From Escherichia phage BME3, in the sequence record PP239276.1: a stretch of 64,000 nucleotides of DNA. One strand, 5' to 3'. The notes beneath the pieces were generated by a model. The model was not told the DNA's origin, ran no database searches, and saw only the letters and a program-made list of their open reading frames with translations. A program made the position numbers and the translations under genes. Shown piece by piece: positions 1 through 60,833 of the stretch. The stretch's first letter is position 1. Each line of letters begins with the position of its first letter.

Positions 1-2
1 GT

Positions 3-224
3 TTGGTTCGTCCTATTAAGTATCTAATGAGTCAAAGCGAAGTTGATTTTAAAATTGCACTTTCACAACTTCCTTTGTATTATGTAGAACAACTGTTCTT
101 TGGTTGCCTTGCAGAAGGTTACAATAACATTGAAAAATACAAAGAGAACTTTGATTTCCTACGTCAATTTTTTGAAAGCAATATTATCGACAAATCTAAT
201 GTTAAAGGGGATTATTATGTCTAA
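3..224 (+). CDS. hypothetical protein, possibly 5' partial at window edge
   Basis: ORF in track opens at position 3 with a TTG; no recognisable motif. Confidence 0.3.
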   Translation: MVRPIKYLMSQSEVDFKIALSQLPLYYVEQLFFGCLAEGYNNIEKYKENFDFLRQFFESNIIDKSNVKGDYYV

Positions 225-933
225 TAAAGTAATGACTTTCGGAGATCCTATTACCAATATTACAGAAAAAGATTTTGGGCGCGTAGCAACAGATAAAGAT
301 GGTGTCTTAAGAATTCGTGTACAAGGCATTACAGCACAGGATGAATATGCTGTGTATGTTTCAGGTCTTAACTATATTGATGATCGCATTACACAAAACT
401 TTGCACTGATCGGTGGTGTAGAGAAAATGTACTGGGAAGATGAAATTGTAACAAGTTATCCAGCAGGTATCATTGAGGTATACGGTGATCTTTTAGCAGC
501 AGCCGAGAGAGGCGATATAGACGCTATAGCACACTGCTGTAACTGTTTTTGCACTATGGGTAGTGGTATTGCACCAAAAATTAAAAGCAAGTGGCCTGGT
601 GCGTTTAAAGCAGATTGTGCCACTACACGTGGTGATTATAAAAAATTAGGTACGTTTACCAAATATACAGAAAACAATTTGACAATTTATAATTTATATG
701 GACAATATGGTTATAGTCGTCGTGAGGAAGGTAAGCGTGACCTGAATTATGAAGCTATCTACAATGCGCTAGATAGTATGGGAGACGATGTTGTATCTTC
801 AGGCGGTAAAATTGTAGGTTTACCAATGCTTGGTTGTGGTTTGGCTGGAGGTTCTTGGAATATTGTAAAACTTATGATCGAAGAAACTCTAGTAAACAAA
901 GGTTTAAATGTAATTGTTTACAAACTGAAATAA
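217..933 (+). CDS. macro domain protein (TARG1/DarG-like ADP-ribose hydrolase family)
   Basis: ATG at 217 preceded by AAAGGGG RBS; motif DAIAHCCNCFCTMGSGIAPKIK resembles the TARG1/DarG-type macrodomain core; later LGCGLAGG glycine-rich stretch. Confidence 0.6.
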   Translation: MSNKVMTFGDPITNITEKDFGRVATDKDGVLRIRVQGITAQDEYAVYVSGLNYIDDRITQNFALIGGVEKMYWEDEIVTSYPAGIIEVYGDLLAAAERGDIDAIAHCCNCFCTMGSGIAPKIKSKWPGAFKADCATTRGDYKKLGTFTKYTENNLTIYNLYGQYGYSRREEGKRDLNYEAIYNALDSMGDDVVSSGGKIVGLPMLGCGLAGGSWNIVKLMIEETLVNKGLNVIVYKLK

Positions 934-942
934 GGAGAAAGT

Positions 943-1149
943 ATGGCAGGTGTTTTAGCAGTATTAGGTTGTTTTATTGTTGTGTTCTTGATTGTGTTAA
1001 TCCCTAGTTGGCTACTGCTTTTAGCATACAACTATATGATTGACATTATCGGCTTAGACTGGCATCATGTTCCTGTAACGTTTTGGAGTGTAGTCTGTGT
1101 GACGTTCATTCTTGCGGTACTCCGTGGTATCTTTCAATCTAACAAATAA
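943..1149 (+). CDS. small membrane protein (two hydrophobic segments)
   Basis: AAGGAGAAAG RBS before ATG; sequence LAVLGCFIVVFLIVLIPSWLLLLAY and VTFILAVL are hydrophobic. Confidence 0.5.
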   Translation: MAGVLAVLGCFIVVFLIVLIPSWLLLLAYNYMIDIIGLDWHHVPVTFWSVVCVTFILAVLRGIFQSNK

Positions 1150-1163
1150 GAGAGGATCTTTAT

Positions 1164-1412
1164 ATGCGTAAAGTAAATGTTGAAGTGCTTGAAAAATTTA
1201 TAAACACCCGTGATTGTACTATCGGCAAGGTTTACGAGGCTATTCTCATTGAAGATGGGGATGAAGTTCCTGCCCCGTATCATGCCTTTAACGGTCAGGT
1301 TAGCAAAGTGGAAGGTGGTCTTGCTATTTGCTTTATTGATGATGTAGGTGATGCTGTAGCTTTCCCTATCATTAACAAAGAAGATAAACTTAAAATTACA
1401 GAACTGAACTAG
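1164..1412 (+). CDS. hypothetical protein
   Basis: 82 aa ORF with upstream purine-rich RBS. Confidence 0.45.
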   Translation: MRKVNVEVLEKFINTRDCTIGKVYEAILIEDGDEVPAPYHAFNGQVSKVEGGLAICFIDDVGDAVAFPIINKEDKLKITELN

Positions 1413-1440
1413 TTGACTTTCTTTAAAAACAGTTTATAGT
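1413..1440 (+). promoter_or_regulatory. sigma70-like promoter (TTGACT - 16 nt - TATAGT) upstream of TerC-like gene
   Basis: TTGACT at 1413-1418 and TATAGT at 1435-1440 read directly. Confidence 0.5.
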
Positions 1441-1452
1441 ATAAGACATAGA

Positions 1453-1471
1453 GCGGAGGATTGTCCTCCGC
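1453..1471 (+). promoter_or_regulatory. leader hairpin GCGGAGGA-TTGT-CCTCCGC in 5' UTR of TerC-like gene
   Basis: perfect 7-8 bp inverted repeat between promoter and RBS; no T-run after it. Confidence 0.4.
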
Positions 1472-1489
1472 ATTAAAGAGGAGAAAAGA

Positions 1490-2467
1490 ATGCAACTGGG
1501 TTTCCCAATTATTGATGTGGTTGTTTTAGTGGGTATTTTAGTGTTGTCGATTTGTATTGATTTCTTTGGACACAGAGAAAACAAAGAAATTTCATTTAAA
1601 TCTGCAATTGGTTGGTCAATTTTCTGGATTGGGGTATCATTAGCCTACTATGGTTTTGTATACTTCCAACACGGTGCTGATTTTGCGAGCTTGTTTTTGA
1701 GTGGGTATGTGTTGGAGAAATCTCTTTCTGTAGATAACTTAGTAGTATTTGTGGCAGTATTCGCAAGTTTTGGTATTAAAAGCACACACTTGCAACACAA
1801 GATTCTACTTTGGGGTATTGCAGGTGCGATTGTCTTCCGAGGTGTGTTTGTAGCAGTAGGCACTTACTTGTTGAGTTTGGGCTGGTATGTTAATATCTTC
1901 TTCGGTGCGGTCATCCTTTTCTGTGCAGCTAAAATGGTATTCGCTGGAGATAATGACGCAGAAGTTGATTACTCTAAACACTGGGCTACTCGCATTGTTC
2001 GTAAACTGTTCCCTGTATCTGATCAGATGGATGGCGAGAAGTTCTTCACAATCAAAAATGGTGTTCGTGTAGCAACTCCGGCTCTGGTTTGTGTGTTTGT
2101 AATGGAAATGGTTGACGTAATCTTTGCAGTAGACTCTGTTCCAGCAGTAATTGCAGTGACACAAGAACCTCTGCTTGTATTTTCTTCAATGCTGTGTGCA
2201 ATTTTAGGTTTACGTGCTCTGTTCTTTGTCCTTAGTGTTGCACTGAAATATTTGGTTCATCTGGAGAAAGCAGTTATCGTAGTCCTGGTATTTGTGGGTG
2301 TAAAACTGATGTATCACCCGTTTGCAGAAACTCTGCACGCAAAAGTGAGTTTCCTGCCAGCACACATTGATCCGACGATCAGTATGTATATTGTGTTAGG
2401 TACTCTGGGGCTGGGTGTTATTGCAAGTTTAATCTTCCCTGAAAAAGAAGACCAAGCTGTTGCTTAA
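1490..2467 (+). CDS. TerC family integral membrane protein
   Basis: multi-pass hydrophobic protein with the TerC-family signature LEKSLSVDNL and a second DxxFAVDS segment; AAAGAGGAG RBS. Confidence 0.7.
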   Translation: MQLGFPIIDVVVLVGILVLSICIDFFGHRENKEISFKSAIGWSIFWIGVSLAYYGFVYFQHGADFASLFLSGYVLEKSLSVDNLVVFVAVFASFGIKSTHLQHKILLWGIAGAIVFRGVFVAVGTYLLSLGWYVNIFFGAVILFCAAKMVFAGDNDAEVDYSKHWATRIVRKLFPVSDQMDGEKFFTIKNGVRVATPALVCVFVMEMVDVIFAVDSVPAVIAVTQEPLLVFSSMLCAILGLRALFFVLSVALKYLVHLEKAVIVVLVFVGVKLMYHPFAETLHAKVSFLPAHIDPTISMYIVLGTLGLGVIASLIFPEKEDQAVA

Positions 2468-2473
2468 TTCATT

Positions 2474-2495
2474 AAGCCCCTTCGGGGGCTTTGTT
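2474..2495 (+). terminator. rho-independent terminator
   Basis: AAGCCCC-TTCG-GGGGCTT hairpin followed by TGTT. Confidence 0.6.
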
Positions 2496-2506
2496 GAGGT
2501 GATCTG

Positions 2507-2713
2507 ATGGTGGTTTTACGTGTTCTTTGGATTCTGTTTGAAAATATTTGTTTTGCTCTAGGGTTGTTTTGTTTGATTTTTATCTTGACAACATATATTG
2601 ATAACCATACAATTACTATCAACAGGAACGGAGAACAGATGTATTGTTTCTCTAGGGATTTTAAAAATTGTGTTGAGACTTTAAATGAGAGGGTTACAAA
2701 TGAAAAACATTAA
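2507..2713 (+). CDS. hypothetical small protein
   Basis: 68 aa ORF after terminator, GAGGTGA RBS; hydrophobic N-terminus. Confidence 0.3.
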   Translation: MVVLRVLWILFENICFALGLFCLIFILTTYIDNHTITINRNGEQMYCFSRDFKNCVETLNERVTNEKH

Positions 2714-3290
2714 ATCTTTTATTGTTGCAGTTGTTTTAGGTAGTGCATTGTTGGTAGGTTGTGATGATTCTGAAAATGTACAAAACCAACGTTACCAACA
2801 AACACCAAATCAGATGGTAGATGAACAATATGTAAATCAACCTGCACCTCAAGTTGTTCAAGCAGCACCTGCACAACCTTCAACAGTTGTTGTGCAAGGA
2901 GGCGGTAGTGGTTCTTCTGGCGTAGGTGAGTTTGCTACAGGTATGCTTCTTGGTCATATGTTGAGTGGTAATAGTGGCGGTGGTGGTTATAGGGATGGTG
3001 GTAGCAGCACAACAATTATTAATAACAACGCTGCTCCTACAACTAACAATAAAGCATATACAACACAAAAGCATAGTTTTTATGATAAACAAGGAAATAC
3101 ATATACAACCACTAAACAAAACACAATTAAGCAGCAAAGTGTACAAACGTATTCACGCCCATCAACAACAAAAGTGAATAGTGATTACTCTGCTCGTAAG
3201 TCTTACTCAAGTCCTATTAGCTCTTATAGTAAGTCTTCGAAAAGTTATTCTTCGTCGAAACGTAGTTTTAGTAGCTCACGTCGTCGTTAA
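2700..3290 (+). CDS. putative lipoprotein, Ser/Thr/Gly-rich low complexity
   Basis: MKNIKSFIVAVVLGSALLVGC lipobox-like signal peptide; internal ATG at 2700 with GAGGG RBS preferred over 2685. Confidence 0.5.
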   Translation: MKNIKSFIVAVVLGSALLVGCDDSENVQNQRYQQTPNQMVDEQYVNQPAPQVVQAAPAQPSTVVVQGGGSGSSGVGEFATGMLLGHMLSGNSGGGGYRDGGSSTTIINNNAAPTTNNKAYTTQKHSFYDKQGNTYTTTKQNTIKQQSVQTYSRPSTTKVNSDYSARKSYSSPISSYSKSSKSYSSSKRSFSSSRRR

Positions 3291-3325
3291 TAATTTAATA
3301 CAGATTAAACAAGAAGGAGAAACAG

Positions 3326-4177
3326 ATGAAACTAGAAGTTGGTAAAGTGTATCGCCTGGAAGGTTGGATCTTTAATCAAGAAATTCTTGAGAAGAATAAA
3401 GATGGTTTTGAGTTTGTTGGTACTACCCAGGAAAGTATGCACGATGATGAATACTGTAAATTCGTTGGTAAAAATACAGGTCAAGAACAATTTTGCTTTA
3501 AGAGCGCAATCGGTGATTATGCTTCTGTAATGCCAACACCAGAAAAAACTCCGAAGCAATATACTGTCTTTGGTGTAAAACTTGAAGAACTTGTAGAACA
3601 CCCACGTTTTGAAGAGTTCAAGGTTGCTGCAATGTGCAAGCATTCTGAAATTAAAATACATAATTTGTTTGATTTAGAAGATCGGTTTGATATCTTTATG
3701 TATGATCGCAGGGAAAAGCATTTTGATGCAACGACTTCAAAATTTGCTGCAACAGAGGATATTAAAATTCTTGATGTTGATACCTTTCTTCAGAATGTAT
3801 CGTTTGTATTCATTCCTAAGTACAAAAAACGTAGTGATCATAAACGTGTGAAAGGAACTCCTCGTAAGAAACGTACTGTAAACAAAGCAACTTTGCACTT
3901 CACTTCTGGTGATAAGTATACTCTCAAAGGGTTTGAAAGTGTTTTGTATGATGCTGGAACGGGTAATATCAAGTTTATCATTAAGGCAACCTACAAAGGT
4001 ACGGTATTACACGAAGAGGCTGTTACACTACCTGTATTCGATATCTCTCGTGTTGAGGTACGGGGTGTTAAAGAGTCCTTCGATCTGGATTTCTTAACCA
4101 CTAATGCTACTGGTTATGTTAATCTGGAAGCAGATGGGGCGTTTATTACTACAAATTATTTAGATATGTTTGTTTAA
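3326..4177 (+). CDS. hypothetical protein
   Basis: 283 aa ORF, AAGGAGAAACAG RBS. Confidence 0.55.
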   Translation: MKLEVGKVYRLEGWIFNQEILEKNKDGFEFVGTTQESMHDDEYCKFVGKNTGQEQFCFKSAIGDYASVMPTPEKTPKQYTVFGVKLEELVEHPRFEEFKVAAMCKHSEIKIHNLFDLEDRFDIFMYDRREKHFDATTSKFAATEDIKILDVDTFLQNVSFVFIPKYKKRSDHKRVKGTPRKKRTVNKATLHFTSGDKYTLKGFESVLYDAGTGNIKFIIKATYKGTVLHEEAVTLPVFDISRVEVRGVKESFDLDFLTTNATGYVNLEADGAFITTNYLDMFV

Positions 4178-4245
4178 TACTTAATTTGTGTTATGATGGT
4201 GGTACAGAGGTATCACCATCTACTAAAGAATATGGAGGAAATTGA

Positions 4246-5349
4246 ATGTCCAGTCCTTTTATCAGTGCCGTAAAAAGCAAACCGTCTGAAATGAGTGTAT
4301 TCACGGCAACAACAGAAAAAAGTAAGTCTTTGTTTGCTCCAAGTGCTATGGATGCAAGCCCTGTATATGCACCTGCTGTTGCACGACCTGTACAAATGCT
4401 GCCTCCAATGTCTCGTGAAGAGATTGAACAGGTTGGTGCTGATGCAGGACTTACTCTTCGTAACCTTAATGCTGAAGTGCTTAAACACCAGCGTTCATCT
4501 CAGGGAGATGAAATGAGTGAACGTTTAACTGCACTTATTAAGCAAGCAAAGCAACTTGATCCTAATTCTATTAAACAATCTAAAGGTTTAGGTAAGTTAG
4601 TTAAGAAAGTATTAGGTATGAAAGAAGATTTGTTTGGAGAATTTGACACCATCAATAATCGTATTGAAGGTTTGGTAAAGACACTCCAAACAGACTTGAA
4701 AAAAGAAGAAGATTCTTTACGATATCTGCAACGTTTAGAAGAGGCTATTGCAAAATATGCTCTTAGCTTAAACAGAGATATAGAGCTTCTAACAGCTACG
4801 TATGAAAAAGAAGAAGTTCGCCTTAATACACTACCTGAAAATGAAGTAGAAGAGCGTCAACGTACTCGTGATACTATGGATCTGCTTGAAATTCGTATTG
4901 CAGACCTGAAAGCATTACGTTTACTCTGTGTTCAGATGGGGCCACGTGTACAAAGTATGCAGAAAGTATCTGCAAGTTTGATGCGATCAGCACGTAACAT
5001 TGTGAATAATGTTATCCCTGCTTACTCTGCAAACTTTTCTATGTATATTGAAAGTCTACGCCAGAAGAAAGCAGCCGATACACAGAACAATGTACTGAAT
5101 GAATTTAATGCTGCTATTGCAATGGGTAGTGATCTGGCTGCACAAAACCAAATTGAAGCTACACAACTTGCTAATCGTCAAGTATTGGATATTGAAACAC
5201 TACGTCGCGATCAAGAAAACTTAGTTAAAATGTTGGAAGAAACTAACCGAATCAACACTGAAGCCCGTGCTGCTCGTATTGATTACATCCAAGAAGTGCA
5301 ATCTCTTGAAGATGGTATGATTCAAACTGTTAAACGTGGTCTACTTTAA
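4246..5349 (+). CDS. TelA-like (toxic anion resistance family) coiled-coil protein
   Basis: 367 aa, long helical heptad-rich sequence with layout similar to TelA/KlaA; TGGAGGAAATTGA RBS. Confidence 0.5.
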   Translation: MSSPFISAVKSKPSEMSVFTATTEKSKSLFAPSAMDASPVYAPAVARPVQMLPPMSREEIEQVGADAGLTLRNLNAEVLKHQRSSQGDEMSERLTALIKQAKQLDPNSIKQSKGLGKLVKKVLGMKEDLFGEFDTINNRIEGLVKTLQTDLKKEEDSLRYLQRLEEAIAKYALSLNRDIELLTATYEKEEVRLNTLPENEVEERQRTRDTMDLLEIRIADLKALRLLCVQMGPRVQSMQKVSASLMRSARNIVNNVIPAYSANFSMYIESLRQKKAADTQNNVLNEFNAAIAMGSDLAAQNQIEATQLANRQVLDIETLRRDQENLVKMLEETNRINTEARAARIDYIQEVQSLEDGMIQTVKRGLL

Positions 5350-5362
5350 GGAGAAATATATT

Positions 5363-5569
5363 ATGAATATTAAAATTTACAAACTGTCTGGTTCTATGAT
5401 TGCTGTCCAGTACGACAATGAAGATCGTTATGTTCTCCTCCAGGATGCTTGGTTAGATGATCCTAATGTATTCACTGTCCTGCGAGAACTACGTTCTGTC
5501 TATACCTATTCTTCTAAAGATGGTTTTGATAGTTCAACGATGGAATTGGTAAAAGAGGAGAATGTGTAA
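5363..5569 (+). CDS. hypothetical protein
   Basis: internal ATG at 5363 with AAGGAG RBS; start codon overlaps upstream stop. Confidence 0.45.
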   Translation: MNIKIYKLSGSMIAVQYDNEDRYVLLQDAWLDDPNVFTVLRELRSVYTYSSKDGFDSSTMELVKEENV

Positions 5570-5769
5570 TGAGTAAAGATATTCACTTAACTCGTGAAGA
5601 GTTACAAACCATTATGGAAGATGCTTTCATTGATGGTTGGAAACAAGGTCAAGAGTCAGATTGGTATGATGCCGAAGATTTTTTGTATTATCATATGACT
5701 GCACCTGTAGACGAGCAAACACACTCTGAAACAACTTTGGCTTTAATTGATCTTAAGGCTGGTGTATAA
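5569..5769 (+). CDS. hypothetical protein
   Basis: 66 aa, translationally coupled (TAATG overlap), AAGAGGAG RBS. Confidence 0.5.
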   Translation: MSKDIHLTREELQTIMEDAFIDGWKQGQESDWYDAEDFLYYHMTAPVDEQTHSETTLALIDLKAGV

Positions 5770-6332
5770 TGGGGTGTTTTAGTTTCTTGTGCAAAGAGTC
5801 TGGTAATGCTGCTCTTTCTACCTCTTTCGATGGCTCTCCTTGCTACCTATTTCTTTTGAAAGGTGGTAAAGTTGTTGAAGAGATGTATGGCAATTATGAT
5901 AGCTATGGTAGTGTTTTCTCTAACGAAGAAGATAAACATGGCAATCGTAAAAGATTCAAGTGGTCTATGCCTTGGGAAGAAGTTTGTAATTTGATGTTCT
6001 CTTCCGATCCTGGGGATGGTATCGCTATGATATTAGAAGAGCACTTTACAGGTGAGATCCCAACAGAAAGATCTGAAGAAGACCCTAACCAGGGCTGGGG
6101 TGATGGAGAAGAAGATCCAGATTGCTTCTTCAGTATTGAAAATAATAAATTTAAACGTGTTGACAATCCTTACCACAAAGTGCATAATACTTGCATTGAG
6201 ACAGAAGAAGACTCAAAGCTAGAAATTGAAGATGATTTAGTTGTAACTATCTCTTTAAACGAGTTACAAAAGATCACCAGAGAGGCTTTCTACTTAGGCT
6301 TGAGAGCAGGTAAAGGAGAAGACAGTGCTTAA
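5769..6332 (+). CDS. hypothetical acidic protein
   Basis: 187 aa ORF, coupled start. Confidence 0.5.
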   Translation: MGCFSFLCKESGNAALSTSFDGSPCYLFLLKGGKVVEEMYGNYDSYGSVFSNEEDKHGNRKRFKWSMPWEEVCNLMFSSDPGDGIAMILEEHFTGEIPTERSEEDPNQGWGDGEEDPDCFFSIENNKFKRVDNPYHKVHNTCIETEEDSKLEIEDDLVVTISLNELQKITREAFYLGLRAGKGEDSA

Positions 6333-6594
6333 ATTTAATATCAAAGACGACAAATCAGATGAACCTAAATGTTTTGGAGAACTTGACGCAGGTGATACAT
6401 TCGTATATTATGTTGCCTATCAAGATGCTGGTTTAGATACGTTCAGAAACTTAGTGTTTATTAAGATTAATACAAACCAAGCAATGTGTCTGAACGGTTC
6501 ACAAAGAGGTCAACTTAACTGTATCTTATATGATACAGAAGTGGTAGAAGTGGATTTAGAAGTTACTAACATTACAGTCAGAAAGGAGAAATAA
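6325..6594 (+). CDS. hypothetical protein
   Basis: GTG start at 6325 with AAGGAG RBS 6 nt upstream. Confidence 0.45.
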   Translation: MLKFNIKDDKSDEPKCFGELDAGDTFVYYVAYQDAGLDTFRNLVFIKINTNQAMCLNGSQRGQLNCILYDTEVVEVDLEVTNITVRKEK

Positions 6595-6595
6595 T

Positions 6596-7390
6596 ATGTC
6601 CAATAAAATCAGTCTTAAAAAACGTCAAGAAACTCTTACTGTATCTCTGCGTAAGAAAAAGATTAACGATGTTGTTCTTCGTGTCGGTAGCGCCTTAGAT
6701 ATTTCGGGCAGTATGTGTGAACTGTATCGTGATGGCACTGTTAGTGATTTTGTAGGTAAACTGCTGCCGTTTGGTATGAAGTTTGATGATAATGCACAGA
6801 TTGACATGTGGGCTTTCAATAGTTCTTCTTTTGAACTGCCTCCTGCAACGGCTGATGTGTATGATGATTATGTCGGCTCTTGCATGTCTAATGTTTGCAT
6901 CAACGGTGGTACAGCCTATGCTCCAGTAATGCAAGAGATCTATGATACATACTTCGGTAGTGTACCTATGAAAAATATTACACGCGAAGTCGTTGAGTAT
7001 GAAGAAGTTCCGGCTAAAGGTTTCCTTGCTAAACTAACTGGTAAAAAAGAACTTGTAGAAGTAACACGTACTATTGTAGAACAGGTTGTAGATACTGATG
7101 CACAAGTTGATCGTACTCCTGCAATGATTTTCTTCCAAACTGATGGGGAGAACATGGATACTTCAGCAGTACGTAGCTTACTGAACAAACACCGCAACAC
7201 GCCTGTTTACTGGTTTATGGTCGGTGTAGGTAATGCAAACTTTAAATTCCTGAAAGACTTGGCAAAAGAATACGATAATGTTGATTTTATCGGTATTGCA
7301 GATTTGTCCTTGTCTGATGAAGAACTTTACGATAAACTGTTATCCGAAGAGTTTGGTGAGTGGGTTAAAAAATTCGGAGCAAAAGCGTAA
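6596..7390 (+). CDS. von Willebrand factor A (vWA) domain protein, TerY-like
   Basis: MIDAS-like motif LDISGSM near N-terminus; GAAAGGAGAAATAAT RBS. Confidence 0.6.
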   Translation: MSNKISLKKRQETLTVSLRKKKINDVVLRVGSALDISGSMCELYRDGTVSDFVGKLLPFGMKFDDNAQIDMWAFNSSSFELPPATADVYDDYVGSCMSNVCINGGTAYAPVMQEIYDTYFGSVPMKNITREVVEYEEVPAKGFLAKLTGKKELVEVTRTIVEQVVDTDAQVDRTPAMIFFQTDGENMDTSAVRSLLNKHRNTPVYWFMVGVGNANFKFLKDLAKEYDNVDFIGIADLSLSDEELYDKLLSEEFGEWVKKFGAKA

Positions 7391-7397
7391 AAAACGC

Positions 7398-7425
7398 TTG
7401 ACTTTGTAGAAAAGATTAGTAAAAT
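7398..7425 (+). promoter_or_regulatory. sigma70-like promoter (TTGACT ... TAAAAT) upstream of TerD-like gene
   Basis: TTGACT 7398-7403, TAAAAT near 7420-7425. Confidence 0.45.
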
Positions 7426-7462
7426 AGACAACGTAAATTAACAACAAAGGAGATAATAAATT

Positions 7463-8059
7463 ATGACTCAGAAAATTTCCCTGAAAAAAGGTTCTAGCGA
7501 AAAAATTTCTCTGAAAAAGATCGCACCAGCACTGAAACGCATTCGCCTGGAATTCTCTTGGAAATCTAACGAAAAACTGGATCTGGATGTTAGTGCTCTG
7601 ATTTGCCGACACAATGCATCTGGTCTGCCGGAACTGTTGTCTCCTCGTCACCTGGTGTGCTACGCGCAGAAATTTGATCCTGAACGTTCTACTTTTGCAG
7701 GTGAAGATGTTCGTGATGGTGTAGGGCAGATGGAACAGATTGATGTTACACTGGATAATATCTCTGCTGAAGCACAGGAAATTGCATTCGTAATTACTAT
7801 TGATGATGAAACGGGTAAGAAACGCCTTGGTCACGCTACCGAAGGTTTCCTTAAAATCTTCGATGATGAACGTAATGTTGAACTGCTGGACTTTGACTTC
7901 TTGGCCCCAGAACTTGCAGGTAACACCATTTGCCACGTTGCCTCCCTGGTGCGGGAAGATAGCGAATGGAAACTGAAAGCATATGGTGTAGGTAAAGCTG
8001 GGCTTGACATTTACGATGTAGTTAAAGCGTTTGGCGCTGGCGACGATTGGTTCGAGTAA
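7463..8059 (+). CDS. TerD domain protein
   Basis: N-terminal duplicated ISLKKG/ISLKK motif, D/E-rich core (ITIDDETG) and C-terminal WKLKAYGVG, all typical of TerD family. Confidence 0.7.
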   Translation: MTQKISLKKGSSEKISLKKIAPALKRIRLEFSWKSNEKLDLDVSALICRHNASGLPELLSPRHLVCYAQKFDPERSTFAGEDVRDGVGQMEQIDVTLDNISAEAQEIAFVITIDDETGKKRLGHATEGFLKIFDDERNVELLDFDFLAPELAGNTICHVASLVREDSEWKLKAYGVGKAGLDIYDVVKAFGAGDDWFE

Positions 8060-8078
8060 TAAGTCAAGTAATAAATCA

Positions 8079-8104
8079 TAGCGCCCTTCGGGGCGCATAT
8101 TTAA
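8079..8104 (+). terminator. rho-independent terminator
   Basis: GCGCCC-TTCG-GGGCGC hairpin then AT-rich tail. Confidence 0.5.
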
Positions 8105-8123
8105 AATAAAAGAGGAGAAAACA

Positions 8124-8726
8124 ATGAGTATTACTTTAGAAGGTCAAAAACTTATTCGCAGCGGCAATTTTCTTGTAGATATTGACAACAATGAAGATTA
8201 TGCTTTAGAAGTTAGTGATGTGCTGTTTGATGCTTTGCAGTCTGGTTTCAATTTTGAAGTTTATGAAGTAATCCGTGGAACTAAACTCAGAGAAACCCTT
8301 GGATCATCTAGTGATGTTTATTCGGCAATCTGGCAATATTTCGGGTTAATGGATGGTAAGACATATCTTACTGATAGTTATTCTGAAGATGTTGTTTATC
8401 TTGATATGGAAGAGTTTCGTCGTCTGTTCAAAAGTGAAGAAAATGAAGAAGAGGGTGAACTTTTTGAAGGAATTACTCTCGAAGGTAATGTTGAAATTGT
8501 GTATAAAGCAGGAAAAACATTCCACTTACGTGAAAACGGTAAAGCAAAAGTTGATTTTGTAAACAAGACAGTGACAACTGAACATAATTATCTTAAAGAT
8601 GGTCAACCAGCTTTTGAACGTGTAAAAATTAAATTTAAAGTGTTATCTGCACTAGTCACGGATCAAGAACGTATTGATTTTGTAGAAGATGGTGTAGTAA
8701 CTCATACAAAGGTTTACAATATCTAA
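8124..8726 (+). CDS. hypothetical protein
   Basis: 200 aa ORF, AAGAGGAGAAAACA RBS. Confidence 0.55.
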   Translation: MSITLEGQKLIRSGNFLVDIDNNEDYALEVSDVLFDALQSGFNFEVYEVIRGTKLRETLGSSSDVYSAIWQYFGLMDGKTYLTDSYSEDVVYLDMEEFRRLFKSEENEEEGELFEGITLEGNVEIVYKAGKTFHLRENGKAKVDFVNKTVTTEHNYLKDGQPAFERVKIKFKVLSALVTDQERIDFVEDGVVTHTKVYNI

Positions 8727-8758
8727 CAGAGTGTAAGAGGGGGATAGTCCCCCTCCAC

Positions 8759-8787
8759 TTGCAAAATAGCCTCTTCTGTGTTACAAT
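8759..8787 (+). promoter_or_regulatory. promoter with extended -10 (TTGCAA - 17 nt - TGtTACAAT)
   Basis: TTGCAA at 8759-8764, TG at 8779-8780, TACAAT at 8782-8787. Confidence 0.5.
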
Positions 8788-8818
8788 AAAAGTTCGTTTA
8801 ACAAAATAGGAGGCAAGT

Positions 8819-9328
8819 TTGTCAATAAAAACCTTTGTCGCAATTGCGTTACTATCCTTAACTGCTTTTACATTTACACCTGTTGTGGCGCAAGCCGAAG
8901 CTGCAAACGTAAAAACTGCTAAAGTAGTTCACAAGTGTACAAAGCGTGATAGTAAAGAAAATCTATTAGCTTGTGCAATCTATGCAGAAAGTCGTAATCA
9001 AGGAAAGCGCGGTATGTCTGCTGTTGGTAATGTAGTATTGAACAGGGCAAGAGATTCATATTTCCCTGATACTATAAAAGAAGTTTTGTTTCAAAAAGGA
9101 CAATTCTCTTACACGAAGACATTCAACGTTATGGAACACGATAAGTGGAAGGAAGCTAAGGCTATAGCAGAACGTCTACTTTATCTCGAAAACCATTTTC
9201 CAGAATTACGAATTGCATTAGATATTACAAAAGGAGCATTATACTTTAAAAAATCTACAATAAAAGCACACTGGGAAAAAGATATGGTTCTAGTGTACCG
9301 CTACAAAGAACATCAATTCTATCGCTAA
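8819..9328 (+). CDS. SleB-like cell wall hydrolase with signal peptide (candidate secreted endolysin)
   Basis: TTG start after AGGAGG RBS; signal-like AIALLSLTAFTFTPVVAQA; motif CAIYAESRNQGKRGMSAVGNVVLNR with QFSY resembles SleB/Hydrolase_2 family. Confidence 0.55.
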   Translation: MSIKTFVAIALLSLTAFTFTPVVAQAEAANVKTAKVVHKCTKRDSKENLLACAIYAESRNQGKRGMSAVGNVVLNRARDSYFPDTIKEVLFQKGQFSYTKTFNVMEHDKWKEAKAIAERLLYLENHFPELRIALDITKGALYFKKSTIKAHWEKDMVLVYRYKEHQFYR

Positions 9329-9338
9329 GGAGATATAG

Positions 9339-9617
9339 ATGAAAGATGGCGTTATCGTTGCAAGTTATCTTGTTATTGGTCTTACAGAAGAGGATGTACA
9401 TTACATTAGGAAACATTTAGAACAGTTTGCAATGATGTTCATCGAAGACGAAGACAATGTGGATGTTTATTCAATTGAAATGATCAATGATAACGTCTAT
9501 CCTTGTATAGCTTTACGAGTCGATGAAGATGTTTGGGAACGTTTTTCACGTAGTCACGATAATGTTGAATGTTCTATGGTTATGTCACAAAACAACATAC
9601 TGGGAGTGTTACACTGA
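9339..9617 (+). CDS. hypothetical protein
   Basis: 92 aa, TAAGGAGATATAG RBS. Confidence 0.45.
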   Translation: MKDGVIVASYLVIGLTEEDVHYIRKHLEQFAMMFIEDEDNVDVYSIEMINDNVYPCIALRVDEDVWERFSRSHDNVECSMVMSQNNILGVLH

Positions 9618-9847
9618 TGGCTGATGTTATTGAAGTTAACTTTAAAACAAAAAAGAAAGTTGATAAGTATACAATCTTAAAAAATATTTGCGTTGTGTGC
9701 TTTAATTCTGTAATATATGACTCACGTAAGGGCGAAAATGAAAATGAACCTTACATCCAGATTTCTAAAGGTAAAGGGCAGTGTATCTGCAAAAACTGTG
9801 CTGTAGCAATTAAGGAGGTTGTAGATGAAAACCATTGGGATCAATGA
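9617..9847 (+). CDS. hypothetical zinc-ribbon protein
   Basis: ATG overlapping upstream stop (TGATG); two CxxC pairs (CVVC ... CICKNC). Confidence 0.4.
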   Translation: MADVIEVNFKTKKKVDKYTILKNICVVCFNSVIYDSRKGENENEPYIQISKGKGQCICKNCAVAIKEVVDENHWDQ

Positions 9848-10019
9848 TACTGGTGAAGTTGTAAAATCTTGGGATGATCTTAGTGGTATCCCTACAGATA
9901 AACTGATTAAACTGCGTGATGTTTGTCGTGATCATCTTAATGAAACATATAAAGAGTATATGGAAGCACGAGATCACAGTTTAGCTATCCAAATGGAACT
10001 CGCAAAACGTAATCAATAG
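9825..10019 (+). CDS. hypothetical protein
   Basis: 64 aa, AAGGAGG RBS. Confidence 0.4.
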   Translation: MKTIGINDTGEVVKSWDDLSGIPTDKLIKLRDVCRDHLNETYKEYMEARDHSLAIQMELAKRNQ

Positions 10020-10076: not shown

Positions 10077-10640
10077 ATGATATTTCACATAACTCCCTAT
10101 CTTTCTGGAGATATTGGAAAAGGTATCAATGACACAATAAGTGTCTTACCAGAAGATAGTTGGATTTGCCTAAGAGACATTGATACAATGTTTCTTCTTC
10201 CAGAACAACCTGCTTGGTTGGAATCAATAGTCCGTTCAAATCCTGATTTTGATGTTCTTGGTGCATCTTGTAATAGGTTGGGATCAACATATCAATTATT
10301 TAATAATGAAAGAAGTGAAGATCCAAATATATTACACCACATTGAGATTGCAAAAAGAGCACATCTAGAATGGGGGAACTCAATAGAGGAAGTACCTACA
10401 GATGCTATCTTAGCAGGATTCTTTCTTCTCTTTCGTAAGAGTCTGTGGAATGAAATCCCTTTTGAGGAAAGATCAATACAGTTTGATATAATTTTCTCTA
10501 AAGCATTACACGCTAACAATAAAAGGCTAGGTTTACTACGTGGGTTATATTTATTTCACACATACCGTTTAGGTAATGATGATCCTAGAAAAGCTGTTTC
10601 ACACCTTTTACATTGTCAAGACATGAATAAAATTATTTAA
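10077..10640 (+). CDS. putative glycosyltransferase (DxD-like motif)
   Basis: RDIDTMF motif; position at head of a glycosyltransferase block; weak. Confidence 0.35.
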   Translation: MIFHITPYLSGDIGKGINDTISVLPEDSWICLRDIDTMFLLPEQPAWLESIVRSNPDFDVLGASCNRLGSTYQLFNNERSEDPNILHHIEIAKRAHLEWGNSIEEVPTDAILAGFFLLFRKSLWNEIPFEERSIQFDIIFSKALHANNKRLGLLRGLYLFHTYRLGNDDPRKAVSHLLHCQDMNKII

Positions 10641-10649
10641 GGAGTTATT

Positions 10650-11336
10650 TTGGAAAATACAAAAATTGGTGTTGGTGTTATTACTGTAGGTAAGCGTCCT
10701 CTTAAAGATTATCTTGTGACTGATCCTAATGCTACTTTTGTTGTACAGTATGATCGGGAACGAAAAGGTGTTGCATATGCCCGTAATGAACTGATGAAAA
10801 AGTTTTATGATGAAGGGTATGATTACTGGTTTATCTTTGATGATGATTGCTATCCGGTTGTGCCAGGTTGGGAAACATATTTTGTAAAACAGGCTAAGGA
10901 AAATGGCTGGGATTTCTTTGGTATGCCTGAATACTTTAAAGATAAAGTAAAAGGTATTGAAGGTGAAGTGGTTATTTGGGAACTAGGCATGTGCCAGTTT
11001 GGTATGTATTCCCGTGCAGTTATTGAGAAAGCTGGCTATTTCCGTTCATACACCCACGGTTACGGATATGAAGATGCAGAGTGGATTCAGCGTGTTCCAC
11101 TGGCAGGTTTGAACCGAGGTATTCACGGCGTACCATGTCCTATTCGAATTATGGCGTTTATCCATCCTGACGATGTGTTTGGAGATAATCCTTTACCTTT
11201 TGCGAATCTGTCAAAAGAAGAGAAAGAACAGGGGATTGGTGTAAACTGGGAACAATATAAACAATCACTGGAGGATCTTCGCAATGGTAAAACTTTTATC
11301 TCTTATGAGGAGGCTCAAAAATATGGTAAATCCTAA
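10650..11336 (+). CDS. putative GT-A fold glycosyltransferase
   Basis: TTG start after AAGGAG; N-terminal IGVGVITVGKR and acidic DxD motif FIFDDDCYP. Confidence 0.45.
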   Translation: MENTKIGVGVITVGKRPLKDYLVTDPNATFVVQYDRERKGVAYARNELMKKFYDEGYDYWFIFDDDCYPVVPGWETYFVKQAKENGWDFFGMPEYFKDKVKGIEGEVVIWELGMCQFGMYSRAVIEKAGYFRSYTHGYGYEDAEWIQRVPLAGLNRGIHGVPCPIRIMAFIHPDDVFGDNPLPFANLSKEEKEQGIGVNWEQYKQSLEDLRNGKTFISYEEAQKYGKS

Positions 11337-12297
11337 TACTCCTGTACTTAAGTGTGATAATAAGTTAGGCAGTGGTTGTGATTACCATCGTATTGTAATG
11401 CCATTTGCGGGAAATACGTTTAAGCCTAAGAAAGACGTTTTAGTTTTTAATAGAGTGTATTCTCGTGGATCAGACGAAGTTAAACGCCTGAAGGCACAAG
11501 GTGTTAAGATTATTGTAGACTTAGATGATTTTTATTCACTTAACCCTGAACATTATATGGCTGGCGTATTTAGTAATCACTCAAAGACTATTGTAGAGAT
11601 GATTAAGTTAGCAGATGTTGTTACTGTGACAACAGAATACCTAGCTTACAAAATTCGTCATTTAAACCGTAATGTTGTCGTTATTAGAAACGCACTGCCT
11701 TACGACGAAGGTCAATTTACTTTGACAAAAGACCGTTATTCTGACACGCCTATTATTTGGGCTGGAGGGGCGAGCCATGAGCCTGACTTATCTCTTGTGG
11801 CTAATACATTTGATGATACACTATTGACAATTGCAGGGTATGAAGTGTATCCTTCTGCACCTGTTGGAAATAATAGTCAGTATCTAACTACTGCGGAGTG
11901 GGTTAAAGTCAAACGTAAAATTCCAAATGCACAGTATAAACCAGCTATTAAAAATTTAGGTGAGTATATGTCTGTGTATGACGGTCACAGTATTGCAATT
12001 GCTCCTCTGGTAGATAACGACTTCAACAACTGTAAAAGTAATTTGAAGATTTTGGAAGCAGGTGCAAAGGGTCTTCCTATTATCTGTTCTCCTGTGCTGC
12101 CGTACTTCAATCCGGTAGATGCAAAGGCTGTTATCTATGCAGATTCTAAAGCATCTTGGCATTATGAAGTTGTCAAGCTAATGAGGAACCCTAGATACAC
12201 AGAAGATCGTGGTATGATGCTTGCAGAACACGTTCGTCTTAATTATAATCTTGCAGATGCCAATGAACTGCGTCGTCAAGTTATTGAAAGTCTTTAA
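11323..12297 (+). CDS. putative GT-B fold glycosyltransferase (paralog 1)
   Basis: ATG at 11323 after GAGGAGG RBS; C-terminal KILEAGAKGLPIICSP resembles GT-B donor-binding motif; near-identical motifs to next gene. Confidence 0.5.
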   Translation: MVNPNTPVLKCDNKLGSGCDYHRIVMPFAGNTFKPKKDVLVFNRVYSRGSDEVKRLKAQGVKIIVDLDDFYSLNPEHYMAGVFSNHSKTIVEMIKLADVVTVTTEYLAYKIRHLNRNVVVIRNALPYDEGQFTLTKDRYSDTPIIWAGGASHEPDLSLVANTFDDTLLTIAGYEVYPSAPVGNNSQYLTTAEWVKVKRKIPNAQYKPAIKNLGEYMSVYDGHSIAIAPLVDNDFNNCKSNLKILEAGAKGLPIICSPVLPYFNPVDAKAVIYADSKASWHYEVVKLMRNPRYTEDRGMMLAEHVRLNYNLADANELRRQVIESL

Positions 12298-12308
12298 TAA
12301 GGAGCGAT

Positions 12309-13253
12309 ATGCCTAATATTATTCTTGACACACGCGGAAATGAAAAGTATAGTGTATGTGATTTTCATAGAATCATTTTGCCATATAAACGCAAGCTGAC
12401 CATTAATCCTAAGCATAATATTTTTGTGTTCAATGGAGTACCAACACGTGGGAAGCCAGGTTTCCTGGCTCTTAAACAACTTGGGTTTAAATTGGTAATG
12501 GATCTGGATGATTCTTTAATTATTCCTGAAGGGCATATGCTTGAAGGATTATTTGAAAATCAAATCCGAGATGACCTAAAATGGTTCCTTGAAAGAAGCG
12601 ATCTTGTAACTACAACAACTCCAGCATTAAAGGTTGAATTAAGCCAATACAATGATAATGTACATATTGTGCCTAACGGACTACCTTTTGATGAAGGACA
12701 GTTTGTTCTTACGAAAGATCGTTATTCTAAAAGTCCACTGGTTTGGGCGGGAAGTGAAACACATAAACATGATTTAGCTATTCTTCCTAGTTTTGGTAAA
12801 GATTTAACTTTATGTGGATTTCGTAGAGATCACGAAGAGTTAAGTAGTGCTCAATGGTTGCAAATTAAAGAAGATATTCAACCAGATTGTGTTTATGAAG
12901 GTATTCGTCCTTATGAGTGTTATATGGAAGCATACGATGGTCATCAAATCTCTATAGCTCCATTAGTAAATAATCATTTTAATAATGCCAAAAGTAATTT
13001 AAAAATTCTTGAAGCTGGTGCTAAAGGTTTGCCACTCGTTTGTTCACCACGAGAGAACTACTATACTGAAGAATTTAAAGATCTAATCTTCTTTGCTGAT
13101 TCAGTTAAAGAGTGGAAAGATATTGTAGAATACTTAATCGAATCTCCTGATGTTTGTATTGAGAAAGGATTGGCTCTTGCTAAGTATGTAAGAGATAACT
13201 ACAATATTGATGATTTAAATGAAACCCGCAGACTGCTTATCGAGGATTTATAA
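12309..13253 (+). CDS. putative GT-B fold glycosyltransferase (paralog 2)
   Basis: shares VFN, DLDD, VTTTT, VLTKDRYS and ISIAPLVNNxFNNxKSNLKILEAGAKGLP blocks with 11323-12297. Confidence 0.5.
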   Translation: MPNIILDTRGNEKYSVCDFHRIILPYKRKLTINPKHNIFVFNGVPTRGKPGFLALKQLGFKLVMDLDDSLIIPEGHMLEGLFENQIRDDLKWFLERSDLVTTTTPALKVELSQYNDNVHIVPNGLPFDEGQFVLTKDRYSKSPLVWAGSETHKHDLAILPSFGKDLTLCGFRRDHEELSSAQWLQIKEDIQPDCVYEGIRPYECYMEAYDGHQISIAPLVNNHFNNAKSNLKILEAGAKGLPLVCSPRENYYTEEFKDLIFFADSVKEWKDIVEYLIESPDVCIEKGLALAKYVRDNYNIDDLNETRRLLIEDL

Positions 13254-20580: not shown

Positions 20581-21312
20581 ATGAGCGAATTTGTAAACAA
20601 CACCGCATTAAACTACCTGCAAACCCTCGAAAGCAATAGTGTAGATTTGATTCTTACTGACCCACCATATGCTATTTCTCGTGACACAAATTTTCAGTCT
20701 GGAGAGCCTACTGGAAAAGATACGGATAGATTCCGTGTATCTTACAACTTTGGTGATTGGGATGTTGTAGATATTCCTTACTTTAAAGAAGTATTCAAAG
20801 AAGCCTACAGGGTGCTTAGAAAAGGTGGTACTTGCATAGTTTGGTATGATATCTGGAAGATCCAGGAGCTACGTGAAATCCTTGAACCGCTTGGTTTTCG
20901 TATGTTCCGTACTATTGAATGGATTAAAACAAACCCTGTACCCATCAACAGTGGTGTTAACTACCTTAGTAACGCTAAAGAAATGGCTATTGTTTGTGTT
21001 AAAGGTTCTAAGCCAACCTTCAATGCTTCCTACCATAAGGGTGTGTTTGAGTATCCTATCTATCAAGGAGCAGATCGTTTTCATCCAACACAAAAACACT
21101 TGACTTTGTTTTGTGACCTTATTAATATACACACCAACGAAGGAGATGTAGTCTTAGACTTCTTCTCTGGAAGTGCAACAACACAAGTTGCGGCACTTTT
21201 AACAGGTAGAGAATACTTAGGCTGCGAAGCCGATGTAAATATTTTTAAGCAAGCGGAGGAACGACTAAATGAGTACACTGAACAGCAAAATCACCCTGAA
21301 AGCACTGATTAA
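20581..21312 (+). CDS. DNA methyltransferase (beta-class, N6-adenine or N4-cytosine)
   Basis: catalytic LILTDPPY motif near N-terminus and AdoMet motif LDFFSGSATT near C-terminus. Confidence 0.75.
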   Translation: MSEFVNNTALNYLQTLESNSVDLILTDPPYAISRDTNFQSGEPTGKDTDRFRVSYNFGDWDVVDIPYFKEVFKEAYRVLRKGGTCIVWYDIWKIQELREILEPLGFRMFRTIEWIKTNPVPINSGVNYLSNAKEMAIVCVKGSKPTFNASYHKGVFEYPIYQGADRFHPTQKHLTLFCDLINIHTNEGDVVLDFFSGSATTQVAALLTGREYLGCEADVNIFKQAEERLNEYTEQQNHPESTD

Positions 21313-21700: not shown

Positions 21701-21706
21701 GATAAA

Positions 21707-60818: not shown

Positions 60819-60833
60819 CAATCTGTAGTAATT

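Follow-up and report, generated by a model that had tools for sequence, protein, structure and literature searches.

The plus strand of a 64,000-nucleotide stretch of DNA from Escherichia phage BME3 (PP239276.1; hereafter, the window) carries the core genes of the Ter stress response, here in phage-borne form. The open reading frame list contains terC (1490..2467), telA (4246..5349), a gene for a vWA-TerF-like protein (6596..7390), and terD (7463..8059); all features described below lie on the same strand. The products of all four genes score above the curated Pfam cut-offs, which confirms the identities proposed in a sequence-only reading of this DNA, and the predicted assignments are backed by Pfam, NCBIfam, and PDB matches. 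The whole block is approximately 98% identical in nucleotide sequence to that of the phi92-like E. coli myoviruses (Stephanstirmvirinae), and gp182, gp178, gp173, and gp172 of phi92 correspond to the Ter genes of the window in identical order, with nothing substantive differing; the window represents a further isolate from this phage group. The set is already known, since the records of phi92 and its relatives label the products 'membrane bound tellurium resistance protein', 'tellurite resistance', 'VWA domain-containing', and 'TerD family/stress protein', and three papers describe it in lytic phages. Abbreviated phage Ter operons composed of TerD, TerC, TerF, and TelA were described by Iyer, Anantharaman, Krishnan, Burroughs, and Aravind in 2021 (PMC7824862), and the set was also pointed out for phiKp34 in 2021 (PMC8386662) and PhiPsa374 in 2022 (PMC9796965). 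Our literature search found no experiments on any phage Ter gene. We propose, with a probability of about 0.4, that the four proteins form an early-expressed inner-membrane complex, which would shield the infected cell from superinfecting phages, from colicins, or from ion stress.

TerC is a predicted inner-membrane metal transporter of 325 residues of the Alx subtype (PF03741, 133 bits, E 1.2e-38), in which a crude scan indicated about nine or more hydrophobic segments. It scores 323 bits against NCBIfam TIGR03718, the TerC/Alx 'metal homeostasis' subfamily, which has a cut-off of 246 bits. The D82/N83 pair within the motif LEKSLSVDN is invariant in an alignment of eight divergent TerC proteins, as are D209 and D215. 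Over its full length, the phage protein is about 50% identical to chromosomal TerC/Alx proteins, with values of 49–50% for those of Pasteurellaceae and Moraxella, which are named 'TerC/Alx family' in their source records. E. coli Alx exports manganese, and the TerC proteins of B. subtilis metalate exoenzymes. The similarity to chromosomal housekeeping versions, the conservation of the transport-motif residues, and the secreted and envelope proteins encoded beside TerC all speak for a metal and redox housekeeping set, in which TerC would export manganese or other divalent cations or load exported proteins, while the sensing or buffering of metals would fall to TerD, vWA, and TelA. The module would then help the infected cell to remain productive when metals, oxidants, or alkaline conditions stress it, or provide exported phage proteins with metal, and competitors would not be excluded. 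However, with Alx and further TerC paralogues present in E. coli itself, an additional copy has to be accounted for. The terC gene of K. pneumoniae, which is reported to contribute to zinc as well as tellurite resistance (PMC12054061), fits the housekeeping reading.

The leader of the phage terC differs from that of alx. It lacks yybP-ykoY, the manganese riboswitch usually found there, which counts against a housekeeping role, and an Rfam scan of positions 1–10000 found neither a riboswitch nor any other match. The gene is instead preceded by a sigma70-like promoter, TTGACT-16-TATAGT (1413..1440), identified by consensus match only, and by a simple, stable hairpin (1453..1471; dG -15 kcal/mol, z -4.7). 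In ESCO5, TTGACA-17-TAAGAT occupies the equivalent position, and a hairpin is retained (-14.6, z -4.0), each arm of which shows base changes. Unlike chromosomal Alx, the phage TerC sits among TelA, vWA, and TerD, and a housekeeping role in metal balance does not account for the constant association of TerC with them, which is seen both in phages and on a conjugative plasmid. We consider this alternative rather unlikely, albeit the strongest competitor of the protective complex.

The TelA-like coiled-coil protein of 367 residues (PF05816, 118 bits, E 5.1e-34) matches PHROG 5890 'tellurite resistance' and is 79% identical to that of ESCO5; its predicted structure is an all-helical model of low confidence. 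The vWA-TerF-like protein of 264 residues (PF10138, 133 bits, E 1.5e-38) has an intact MIDAS motif, as its DISGSM corresponds to the DxSGS motif that is invariant in an alignment of nine vWA-TerF proteins. The invariant residues of these sequences are D35, S37, G38, S39, D183, and G184, and the threonine of GGT is kept in eight of the nine. The protein contains an insertion of approximately 30–55 residues (about residues 120–175), which compact versions lack, and it is 43% identical to its orthologue from the metagenomic phage L007. LEKSLSVDN and DISGSM, which had been singled out from the sequence alone, are thus real motifs at conserved functional positions and not low-complexity coincidences. 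The TerD-domain protein of 198 residues (PF02342, 98 bits, E 4.8e-28) matches the solved TerD structures 2KXT (E 1e-14) and 3IBZ (E 4e-13). Its calcium-binding loop reads GEDVR-DGVG-QME, as opposed to GDNxTGxGxGDDE in other TerDs, and the loop is canonical in Caulobacter phage CcrPW. Because the loop is degenerate, the protein may sense calcium differently or no longer at all. A sigma70-like promoter, TTGACT-16-TAAAAT (7398..7425; consensus match only), precedes terD, which is followed by a GC-rich hairpin, GCGCCC-UUCG-GGGCGC (8081..8096; dG -13.6 kcal/mol, z -3.0). The hairpin is a possible terminator or processing site; a clear T-run after it is absent on the plus strand.

The degenerate TerD loop could indicate that the block is merely what is left of a ter cassette from a bacterium or plasmid, now decaying and of no use in infection. 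The set is also incomplete relative to bacterial clusters, as a Pfam search found no TerB, extra TerD paralogues, ATP-grasp, or C-C lyase in it, and the compact cassette order is broken up by inserted unrelated reading frames. Nevertheless, the reading frames of all genes of the block are intact, and the catalytic and binding residues are kept. Within Stephanstirmvirinae, the number of records with TerD and TelA is 131, compared to 133 with the primase/helicase of the subfamily. The identities between genera are 81% for TerD, 79% for TelA, 72% for TerC, and 67% for vWA, compared to 71% for primase/helicase, and the Ter proteins diverge no faster than the latter. A functionless hitch-hiker is very unlikely on these conservation grounds. 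The description of the block as unusual cargo for a virulent phage was overstated, since TerD and TelA are found in nearly every record of the subfamily, and the four genes also occur in Otagovirus, Caulobacter and other jumbo phages, and metagenomic phages.

The four genes occur together in at least seven independent contexts, including phi92/ESCO5, metagenomic phage L007, jumbo phage L008, L009, Otagovirus phiPsa374, CcrPW, and a Caballeronia conjugative megaplasmid, and behave as a unit. The abbreviated phage operons share with the window the four protein families, the occurrence in lytic tailed phages, and an optional PRTase/HAD biosynthetic arm. However, they are compact (TelA-vWA-TerC-TerD or TerC-TelA-vWA-TerD), whereas in the window terC stands first and seven extra reading frames interrupt the set. 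The window also differs in its Alx-type TerC, as other phage cassettes encode a DUF475-type TerC and phiPsa374 a short type of 223 residues. The Caballeronia/Burkholderia conjugative megaplasmids contain the same four families in a TelA-vWA-DUF475-TerD cassette, which, unlike the block in the window, is plasmid-borne and contiguous; their vWA is the closest to the phage vWA in the plasmid collection (37% identity). The Alx-type and DUF475-type TerC proteins are only 19–23% identical and non-orthologous. A host-like Alx-type TerC has taken the slot that a DUF475-type TerC fills in the related cassettes of phages and plasmids. TerC was swapped and not lost, which speaks against a decaying remnant, and the refilling of the slot while vWA stayed orthologous points to a requirement of the partners for a TerC-type protein.

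The similarity to bacterial ter/tel neighbourhoods noticed in the sequence-only reading is fully supported. TerC, TerD, vWA-TerF, and the idea of a PRTase and HAD arm are common to the phage set and to bacterial clusters, namely the terZABCDEF operon of IncHI2 plasmids and E. coli O157, and extended clusters such as that of Paenibacillus (vWA-TerB-4xTerD-TerC-C-C lyase-PRTase_2/TRSP-StiP/PELOTA-HAD-ATP-grasp). The phage set differs in containing one TerD instead of several, in the absence of TerB, ATP-grasp, C-C lyase, and TRSP, and in having PRTase_3 where the bacterial clusters have PRTase_1 or PRTase_2. TelA, which is part of the phage set, is not known to belong to terZABCDEF.

The module, which had been taken to start at position 1413, extends further upstream to a Ter-associated arm that was overlooked. 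The window start cuts a gene for the ComF-like phosphoribosyltransferase PRTase_3 (PF15610), of which the C-terminal 73 codons remain (1..224). The fragment alone matches PF15610 with E 1e-3, but it is 98.6% identical to phi92 gp186, which itself scores 6e-41. The PRTase_3 gene overlaps by 8 nucleotides with that of a macro-domain protein of 238 residues (217..933; PF01661, E 3e-7), which adjoins PRTase_3 also in phi92 and ESCO5. It is a candidate member of the Ter module. In phi92, the HAD hydrolase/phosphatase gene gp187 is located directly upstream of PRTase_3. The upstream content varies within the phi92-like group, with JLBYU50 encoding an AAA ATPase in place of PRTase_3, and the Ter cassette of L007 lacks PRTase_3; the PRTase_3 arm is therefore dispensable.

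The location of the block in an accessory-gene arm and the adjoining macro-domain protein could point to a role in counter-defence, in which the module would shield the phage from host abortive-infection systems that kill by depolarising or perforating the inner membrane, or from other defences, acting as ter clusters do in blunting pore-forming colicins. Colicin resistance of plasmid ter clusters is reported as cited in PMC9796965. In other phages, Ter cassettes adjoin NAD-salvage genes (NAMPT, NadM-like) or a PARP-domain gene. The similarity of the macro-domain protein to DarG is weak (PADLOC 1e-13; NCBIfam 49 bits, far under the cut-off of 250), and the support for counter-defence is purely positional, in regions that gather accessory genes of many kinds. 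None of the known anti-defence proteins resembles the four Ter proteins, and their near-universal conservation in the subfamily, whose records come from many different hosts, is more in keeping with a general role in physiology than with evasion of one patchy defence. Counter-defence is an improbable function of the module. The roles in host takeover, stress, and defence evasion put forward in the sequence-only reading are guesses.

The intervening reading frames are, as claimed previously, small unknowns and a lipoprotein. Before terC lie a gp184-like protein of 68 residues with two hydrophobic segments (943..1149; 60% identical to that of ESCO5, no Pfam match) and a gp183-like frame of 82 residues (1164..1412; no Pfam match, not found in ESCO5). 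TerC is followed by a gp181-like protein of 68 residues with one hydrophobic segment (2507..2713), which has a weak DUF6693 match and 49% identity to its ESCO5 counterpart. The predicted gp180-like lipoprotein (2700..3290) has a signal sequence and an LVGC lipobox followed by DD, and a low-complexity body rich in Q, P, G, and S; the phi92 record annotates a signal peptide at this position, and no counterpart was found in ESCO5. The gp179-like protein of 283 residues (3326..4177) matches PHROG 27504 (unknown function) but nothing in Pfam or NCBIfam, and can be aligned to ESCO5 over 83 residues only. Between telA and the vWA gene are gp177-like (5363–5569; not found in ESCO5) and gp176-like (5569–5769; 50% conserved in ESCO5) frames without Pfam matches, a gp175-like protein of 187 residues from a widespread uncharacterised phage family (5769..6332), and a gp174-like frame of 89 residues (6325..6594; 64% identical to ESCO5, no Pfam match), of which ESCO5 has a second, weaker copy between vWA and TerD. 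Downstream of terD, a gp171-like protein of 200 residues (8124..8726) has no family match, was not found in ESCO5, and is limited to phi92-type phages among those examined; L007 has a Band_7/SPFH gene at this position. The conserved downstream neighbour is a SleB-type cell-wall hydrolase with a signal peptide and an N-terminal hydrophobic segment (8819..9328; PF07486, 2.9e-20), found at the equivalent position in ESCO5 and L007. The two small membrane proteins, the lipoprotein, and the secreted hydrolase give the block an envelope theme, into which the Band_7/SPFH gene of L007 also fits.

It is plausible that the Ter block belongs to the early region, because it shares a strand with NrdD/G, primase/helicase, and DNA polymerase, and sigma70-like promoters precede terC and terD. 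These two sites fall in the two largest intergenic gaps; promoter matches overall are only slightly enriched (37 found, 30.4 expected in shuffled sequence). The protective complex is tentatively favoured by the conserved functional residues, the four-gene unit, the TerC swap, the subfamily-wide retention, the envelope genes, the promoters, and precedent. According to Whelan 1995, cited in PMC8386662 and PMC9796965, plasmid ter clusters inhibit phages and make cells resistant to colicins, and superinfection exclusion was proposed for phage Ter operons by Iyer et al. (PMC7824862). Against the complex stand the lack of TerB and of the extra TerD paralogues present in those plasmid operons that have been shown to inhibit phages, the degenerate TerD loop, the absence of PADLOC matches for any of the four Ter genes, the dispensable PRTase_3 arm, and the near-background promoter matches.

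Based on these observations, a mechanism for the protection of the infected cell can be proposed. Host RNA polymerase would transcribe the module early from the sigma70-type promoters before terC and terD. TerC would reside in the inner membrane, and we infer that TelA, vWA, and TerD come together physically underneath it, the signal that couples them being metal ions (calcium, manganese). In phages that encode them, PRTase_3 and HAD probably synthesise a nucleoside-like ligand by which the system is tuned. The complex would stabilise the inner membrane and the ion balance of the infected cell, so that superinfecting phages and membrane-directed toxins may be kept out during replication, similar to the phage inhibition and colicin resistance conferred by plasmid ter clusters.

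The Ter module of the window is real and correctly identified. The four Ter-type ORFs claimed from the sequence alone were borne out on the plus strand between positions 1490 and 8059, where they encode TerC (1490-2467), TelA (4246-5349), a vWA-TerF-like protein (6596-7390) and TerD (7463-8059). All four scored well over the Pfam curated threshold in a profile search: TerC matched PF03741 with 133 bits (E 1.2e-38), TelA matched PF05816 with 118 bits (E 5.1e-34), the vWA-TerF-like protein matched PF10138 with 133 bits (E 1.5e-38), and TerD matched PF02342 with 98 bits (E 4.8e-28). The scenario in which three of the four ORFs lack a significant match therefore clearly failed. The TelA match spans positions 13-330 of the 332-position profile, and TerC also exceeded the cut-off of the NCBIfam TerC/Alx subfamily TIGR03718 (323 versus 246 bits). 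Because the profile matches are full-length, chance coincidence of the motifs was ruled out. The Ter core, in the summary that PMC7824862 gives of Anantharaman, Iyer and Aravind (2012), consists of TerC, TerD, TelA and vWA-TerF.

The two motifs from which TerC and the vWA protein had been recognized belong to functionally conserved sites. TerC contains about nine or more hydrophobic segments, and its residues D82, N83, D209 and D215 do not vary among eight aligned TerC proteins of very wide divergence; the D82/N83 pair lies within the LEKSLSVDN motif. The DISGSM motif is part of the vWA MIDAS, of which DxSGS and the downstream TDG are invariant in all nine vWA-TerF proteins compared, and the GGT threonine in eight of them. 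TerD matches the solved TerD structures 2KXT (E 1e-14) and 3IBZ (E 4e-13), and searches of PDB sequences returned no solved-structure relative of TelA, vWA or TerC. The single-sequence AF2 model of TelA was poor (pLDDT 59), and its Foldseek matches were restricted to generic coiled coils with E values of at least 0.17.

More than 50 Stephanstirmvirinae myoviruses of E. coli (phi92, JLBYU50, muut, PHB05 and others) share the 6.7-kb block at about 98% identity, and another 55 records, the Phapecoctavirus group, share it at 80-90%. The relatives carry annotations such as "putative membrane bound tellurium resistance protein", "tellurite resistance", "VWA domain-containing protein" and "putative TerD family protein". 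A phage-cocktail metagenome paper from 2015 listed gp172, gp173 and gp178 of phi92 as tellurium or tellurite resistance proteins, including TerD (PMC4690881). The same four-gene set was noted in Klebsiella phage phiKp34 (PMC8386662) and in the virulent Pseudomonas phage PhiPsa374, whose authors described its function as unknown (PMC9796965). Since near-identical genomes are annotated and the set has been discussed in the literature, the finding is correct but already known. Our additions are modest: the upstream PRTase_3/macro extension, the switch of TerC type, the degeneracy of the TerD loop, the near-universal conservation within the subfamily, and the link to a conjugative-plasmid cassette. 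Among the database records, the "Campylobacter phage" entries H27-H30, H38 and H71 (MG0656xx; 146-151 kb) share 97.7% identity with this E. coli phage group, and the same seems to apply to a few records labelled Serratia, Acinetobacter or Klebsiella. The odd host labels may reflect mislabelling or contamination of public records.

By three lines of comparative evidence, namely co-occurrence, TerC replacement and selection, the four genes appear to act as a unit. Co-occurrence was checked by Pfam or precomputed Pfam assignments. The four families are found together in contexts that are not related to one another: the Otagovirus phiPsa374, Caulobacter phage CcrPW, the 153-kb metagenomic phage L007, in which the gene order is that of the window, the 340-kb jumbo phage L008 and the 42-kb contig L009. 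A conjugative megaplasmid of Caballeronia contains a compact TelA-vWA-DUF475-TerD cassette. The TerC proteins of the window and of the more distant relative ESCO5 are of the Alx type and share about 50% identity with TerC/Alx proteins encoded on Pasteurellaceae and Moraxella chromosomes. The TerC proteins of L007, L008, L009, CcrPW and the plasmid are of the DUF475 type and only 19-23% identical to that of the window. The vWA proteins are clear orthologues: identity with L007 is 43%, and the homologues form a continuous gradient. Therefore, the module appears to need a partner of the TerC type, and one TerC type appears to have displaced the other in place.

The sequence-only reading had left open whether the block is conserved in related phages. 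TerD and TelA proved near-universal, being present at subfamily-level identity in 131 phage records, compared with 133 for the primase/helicase. Identity between the two genera is 81% for TerD, 79% for TelA, 72% for TerC and 67% for vWA, with 71% for the primase/helicase. This conservation argues strongly against the idea that the module is a functionless remnant, which is therefore very unlikely.

The window opens inside a gene, and positions 1-224 correspond to the last 73 codons of a homologue of phi92 gp186 (98.6% identity). The fragment alone matches the PRTase_3 family PF15610 with an E value of 1e-3, and the complete phi92 gp186, a "ComF-like" phosphoribosyltransferase, matches it with 6e-41. 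The PRTase_3 gene overlaps the following macro-domain gene (217-933, plus strand) by 8 nt. In phi92 it is preceded by a gene for a HAD-type hydrolase, which lies outside the window and was seen only in that phage, and similar overlaps join the HAD, PRTase_3 and macro genes there. The overlaps suggest that the three genes are co-translated. Iyer et al. regard PRTase and HAD as the "signal biosynthesis" arm of complete Ter systems (PMC7824862), of which a Paenibacillus cluster is a bacterial version, with vWA, TerB, four TerD, TerC, a C-C lyase, PRTase_2/TRSP, StiP/PELOTA, HAD and ATP-grasp. The PRTase/HAD arm is optional. It is missing from the related metagenomic phage L007, and in the close relative JLBYU50 an AAA ATPase gene stands where the window has PRTase_3 and the 5' half of the macro gene. 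In the comparison of window positions ~1-535 with JLBYU50 4199-5522, near-identity resumes at about position 535, which suggests that recombination took place recently within the macro gene.

The macro-domain protein (238 residues) has DarG-like similarity in PADLOC (1e-13), with an NCBIfam score of 49 bits, far under the cut-off of 250. Instead of belonging to the Ter module, it could serve in counter-defence by removing ADP-ribose, against toxins such as those of the DarT type. Its homologue in phiPsa374 is 35% identical and adjoins a NAMPT gene. NAD and ADP-ribose genes recur near the Ter cassettes of other phages: NAMPT in phiPsa374 (900-2675), a NadM-family gene in CcrPW (16556 to the end), NadM-like and NAMPT genes 1-3 kb downstream in L009 (13411-16186), and a PARP/WGR protein in L008 (13777-15057). 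A common accessory-gene region may be enough to explain this proximity to Ter cassettes.

The phage module departs from canonical Ter systems in its components and in the metal site of TerD. The loop GDNxTGxGxGDDE, reported for the Klebsiella TerD structure as the canonical calcium-binding loop, is present in both solved structures (2KXT, 3IBZ) and in CcrPW. The corresponding loop of the window and ESCO5 reads GEDVR-DGVG-QME/SME and has lost the Asp-Asp pair, and metal binding by the phage TerD may be altered. The protein retains the DLD strand motif, D82, G88 and E91.

The vWA protein contains an insertion of roughly 30-55 residues that is missing from compact versions. The module has a single TerD without further paralogues, and neither an ATP-grasp enzyme nor a C-C lyase. 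No ORF from 1 to 10019 matched TerB (PF05099) in Pfam, and the small ORFs contained no TerB or other Ter accessory domain by the same search. The phage module thus differs from terZABCDEF of the IncHI2 plasmid R478 and the E. coli O157 type, in which TerB and TerZ, A, D, E and F accompany TerC. Only TelA is recognizable of the RK2 kilA-telA-telB (klaABC) locus; the flanking ORFs of TelA gave no family matches in Pfam, which may have no models of KilA/KlaA or TelB. The arrangement of the TerY-P defence system, a vWA protein TerY with a PP2C phosphatase and a Ser/Thr kinase, was not seen around the vWA gene: the vWA protein and its neighbours gave no kinase or PP2C domain in Pfam and no match in PADLOC, whose release may not include TerY-P models. 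None of the four Ter genes matched in PADLOC, which returned only a chance-level Cas12g for gp179 and the DarG-like match of the macro protein.

Additional envelope proteins are predicted around the core genes. Positions 943-1149 and 2507-2713 encode small predicted membrane proteins, and 2700-3290 a predicted lipoprotein with an LVGC lipobox followed by Asp-Asp. In E. coli, Asp-Asp after the lipobox normally signals retention in the inner membrane. Several ORFs without assigned function fill the remaining space. One of them, the counterpart of phi92 gp175 (5769-6332), is well conserved and belongs to a large phage family with 294 homologues and no Pfam domain; its AF2 model is confident (pLDDT 81) and matched no known fold. 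Its identity as a hidden Ter component was rejected, because the family is an unrelated phage family that is not linked to Ter genes elsewhere. The two largest intergenic gaps hold sigma70-like promoters, at 1413-1440 (TTGACT-16-TATAGT) and 7398-7425 (TTGACT-16-TAAAAT), with predicted transcription starts near 1447 and 7432. The 77-nt leader of terC forms a stable simple hairpin (dG -15 kcal/mol, z -4.7), which ESCO5 retains with base changes on both arms. Riboswitch-controlled alx genes have a yybP-ykoY leader, whereas the phage terC does not; a riboswitch ahead of the Alx-type terC was rejected, as positions 1-10000 gave no Rfam match with E <= 1.

The slot following TerD is occupied in the window by a gp171-like ORF (8124-8726), and in L007, which has the same Ter gene order, by a Band_7/SPFH (flotillin/stomatin-like) gene directly 3' of TerD (11712-12632), the product of which is a membrane-scaffold protein tied to the module. 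A SleB-type cell-wall hydrolase with an N-terminal signal peptide (8819-9328, plus strand; PF07486, 2.9e-20), annotated as endolysin in phi92, sits in the replication-gene arm and not among the late genes. The Ter block and the primase/helicase gene are separated by four consecutive ORFs (10077-13253, plus strand) whose counterparts in phi92 and JLBYU50 carry glycosyltransferase annotations; modification of DNA or of the cell surface is a possible function. At ~21.5 kb (~21300-21750), coding passes from plus-strand genes to minus-strand ORFs and the GC skew changes sign. An array of 16 tRNA genes on the minus strand (60518-63395) contains several matches to sigma70-like promoters, with the pattern TTGACA-N-TGTTAnAnT.

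The analysis shows the identity and conservation of the four genes and the retention of their key residues; the function of the module is inferred. The literature that we found on phage Ter genes consists of genome notes and one comparative-genomics hypothesis, with no experiment. Iyer et al. proposed that phage Ter genes act against superinfecting phages (PMC7824862), and Whelan (1995), as cited in PMC8386662 and PMC9796965, reported phage inhibition and colicin resistance for plasmid ter clusters. By analogy, we tentatively prefer membrane protection and exclusion of competitors, with a probability of roughly 0.4. The module would be expressed early by the host RNA polymerase, TerC would be seated in the inner membrane, and TelA, vWA and TerD would form a metal-dependent assembly beneath it. 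The assembly would protect the membrane and ion balance of the infected cell, and the phage would benefit from the exclusion of superinfecting phages and membrane toxins, as in the plasmid ter phenotypes. Metal and redox housekeeping is a somewhat unlikely role for the module. It is unlikely that the module is a re-engineered Ter device serving as an active weapon, with which the phage excludes rival phages or survives membrane-targeting abortive-infection systems; a host-derived Alx-type transporter would have been swapped in, the TerD calcium site altered and extra envelope proteins added, and the optional trio of HAD, PRTase_3 and macro proteins might produce or process a signal resembling a nucleoside or ADP-ribose. 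Counter-defence against membrane-targeting abortive infection as the role of the module is distinctly unlikely.

Ter clusters are very widespread, with vWA-TerF alone present in 2,522 plasmid records, and resistance to tellurite, colicins and phages has been linked to them. The value of the finding lies in follow-up experiments rather than in the observation itself. To our knowledge, E. coli K-12 has no ter operon of its own, and the BASEL collection includes phages of this group, such as JohannJBalmer and PaulScherrer (Justusliebigvirus), which matched at 98%. Therefore, K-12 and a phi92-type BASEL phage would provide a clean genetic system for Ter protein function. The phage Ter module is a candidate superinfection-exclusion or counter-defence function, and the minimal set of four genes, being under strong selection in a virulent E. 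coli phage, gives tractable access to the Ter mechanism.
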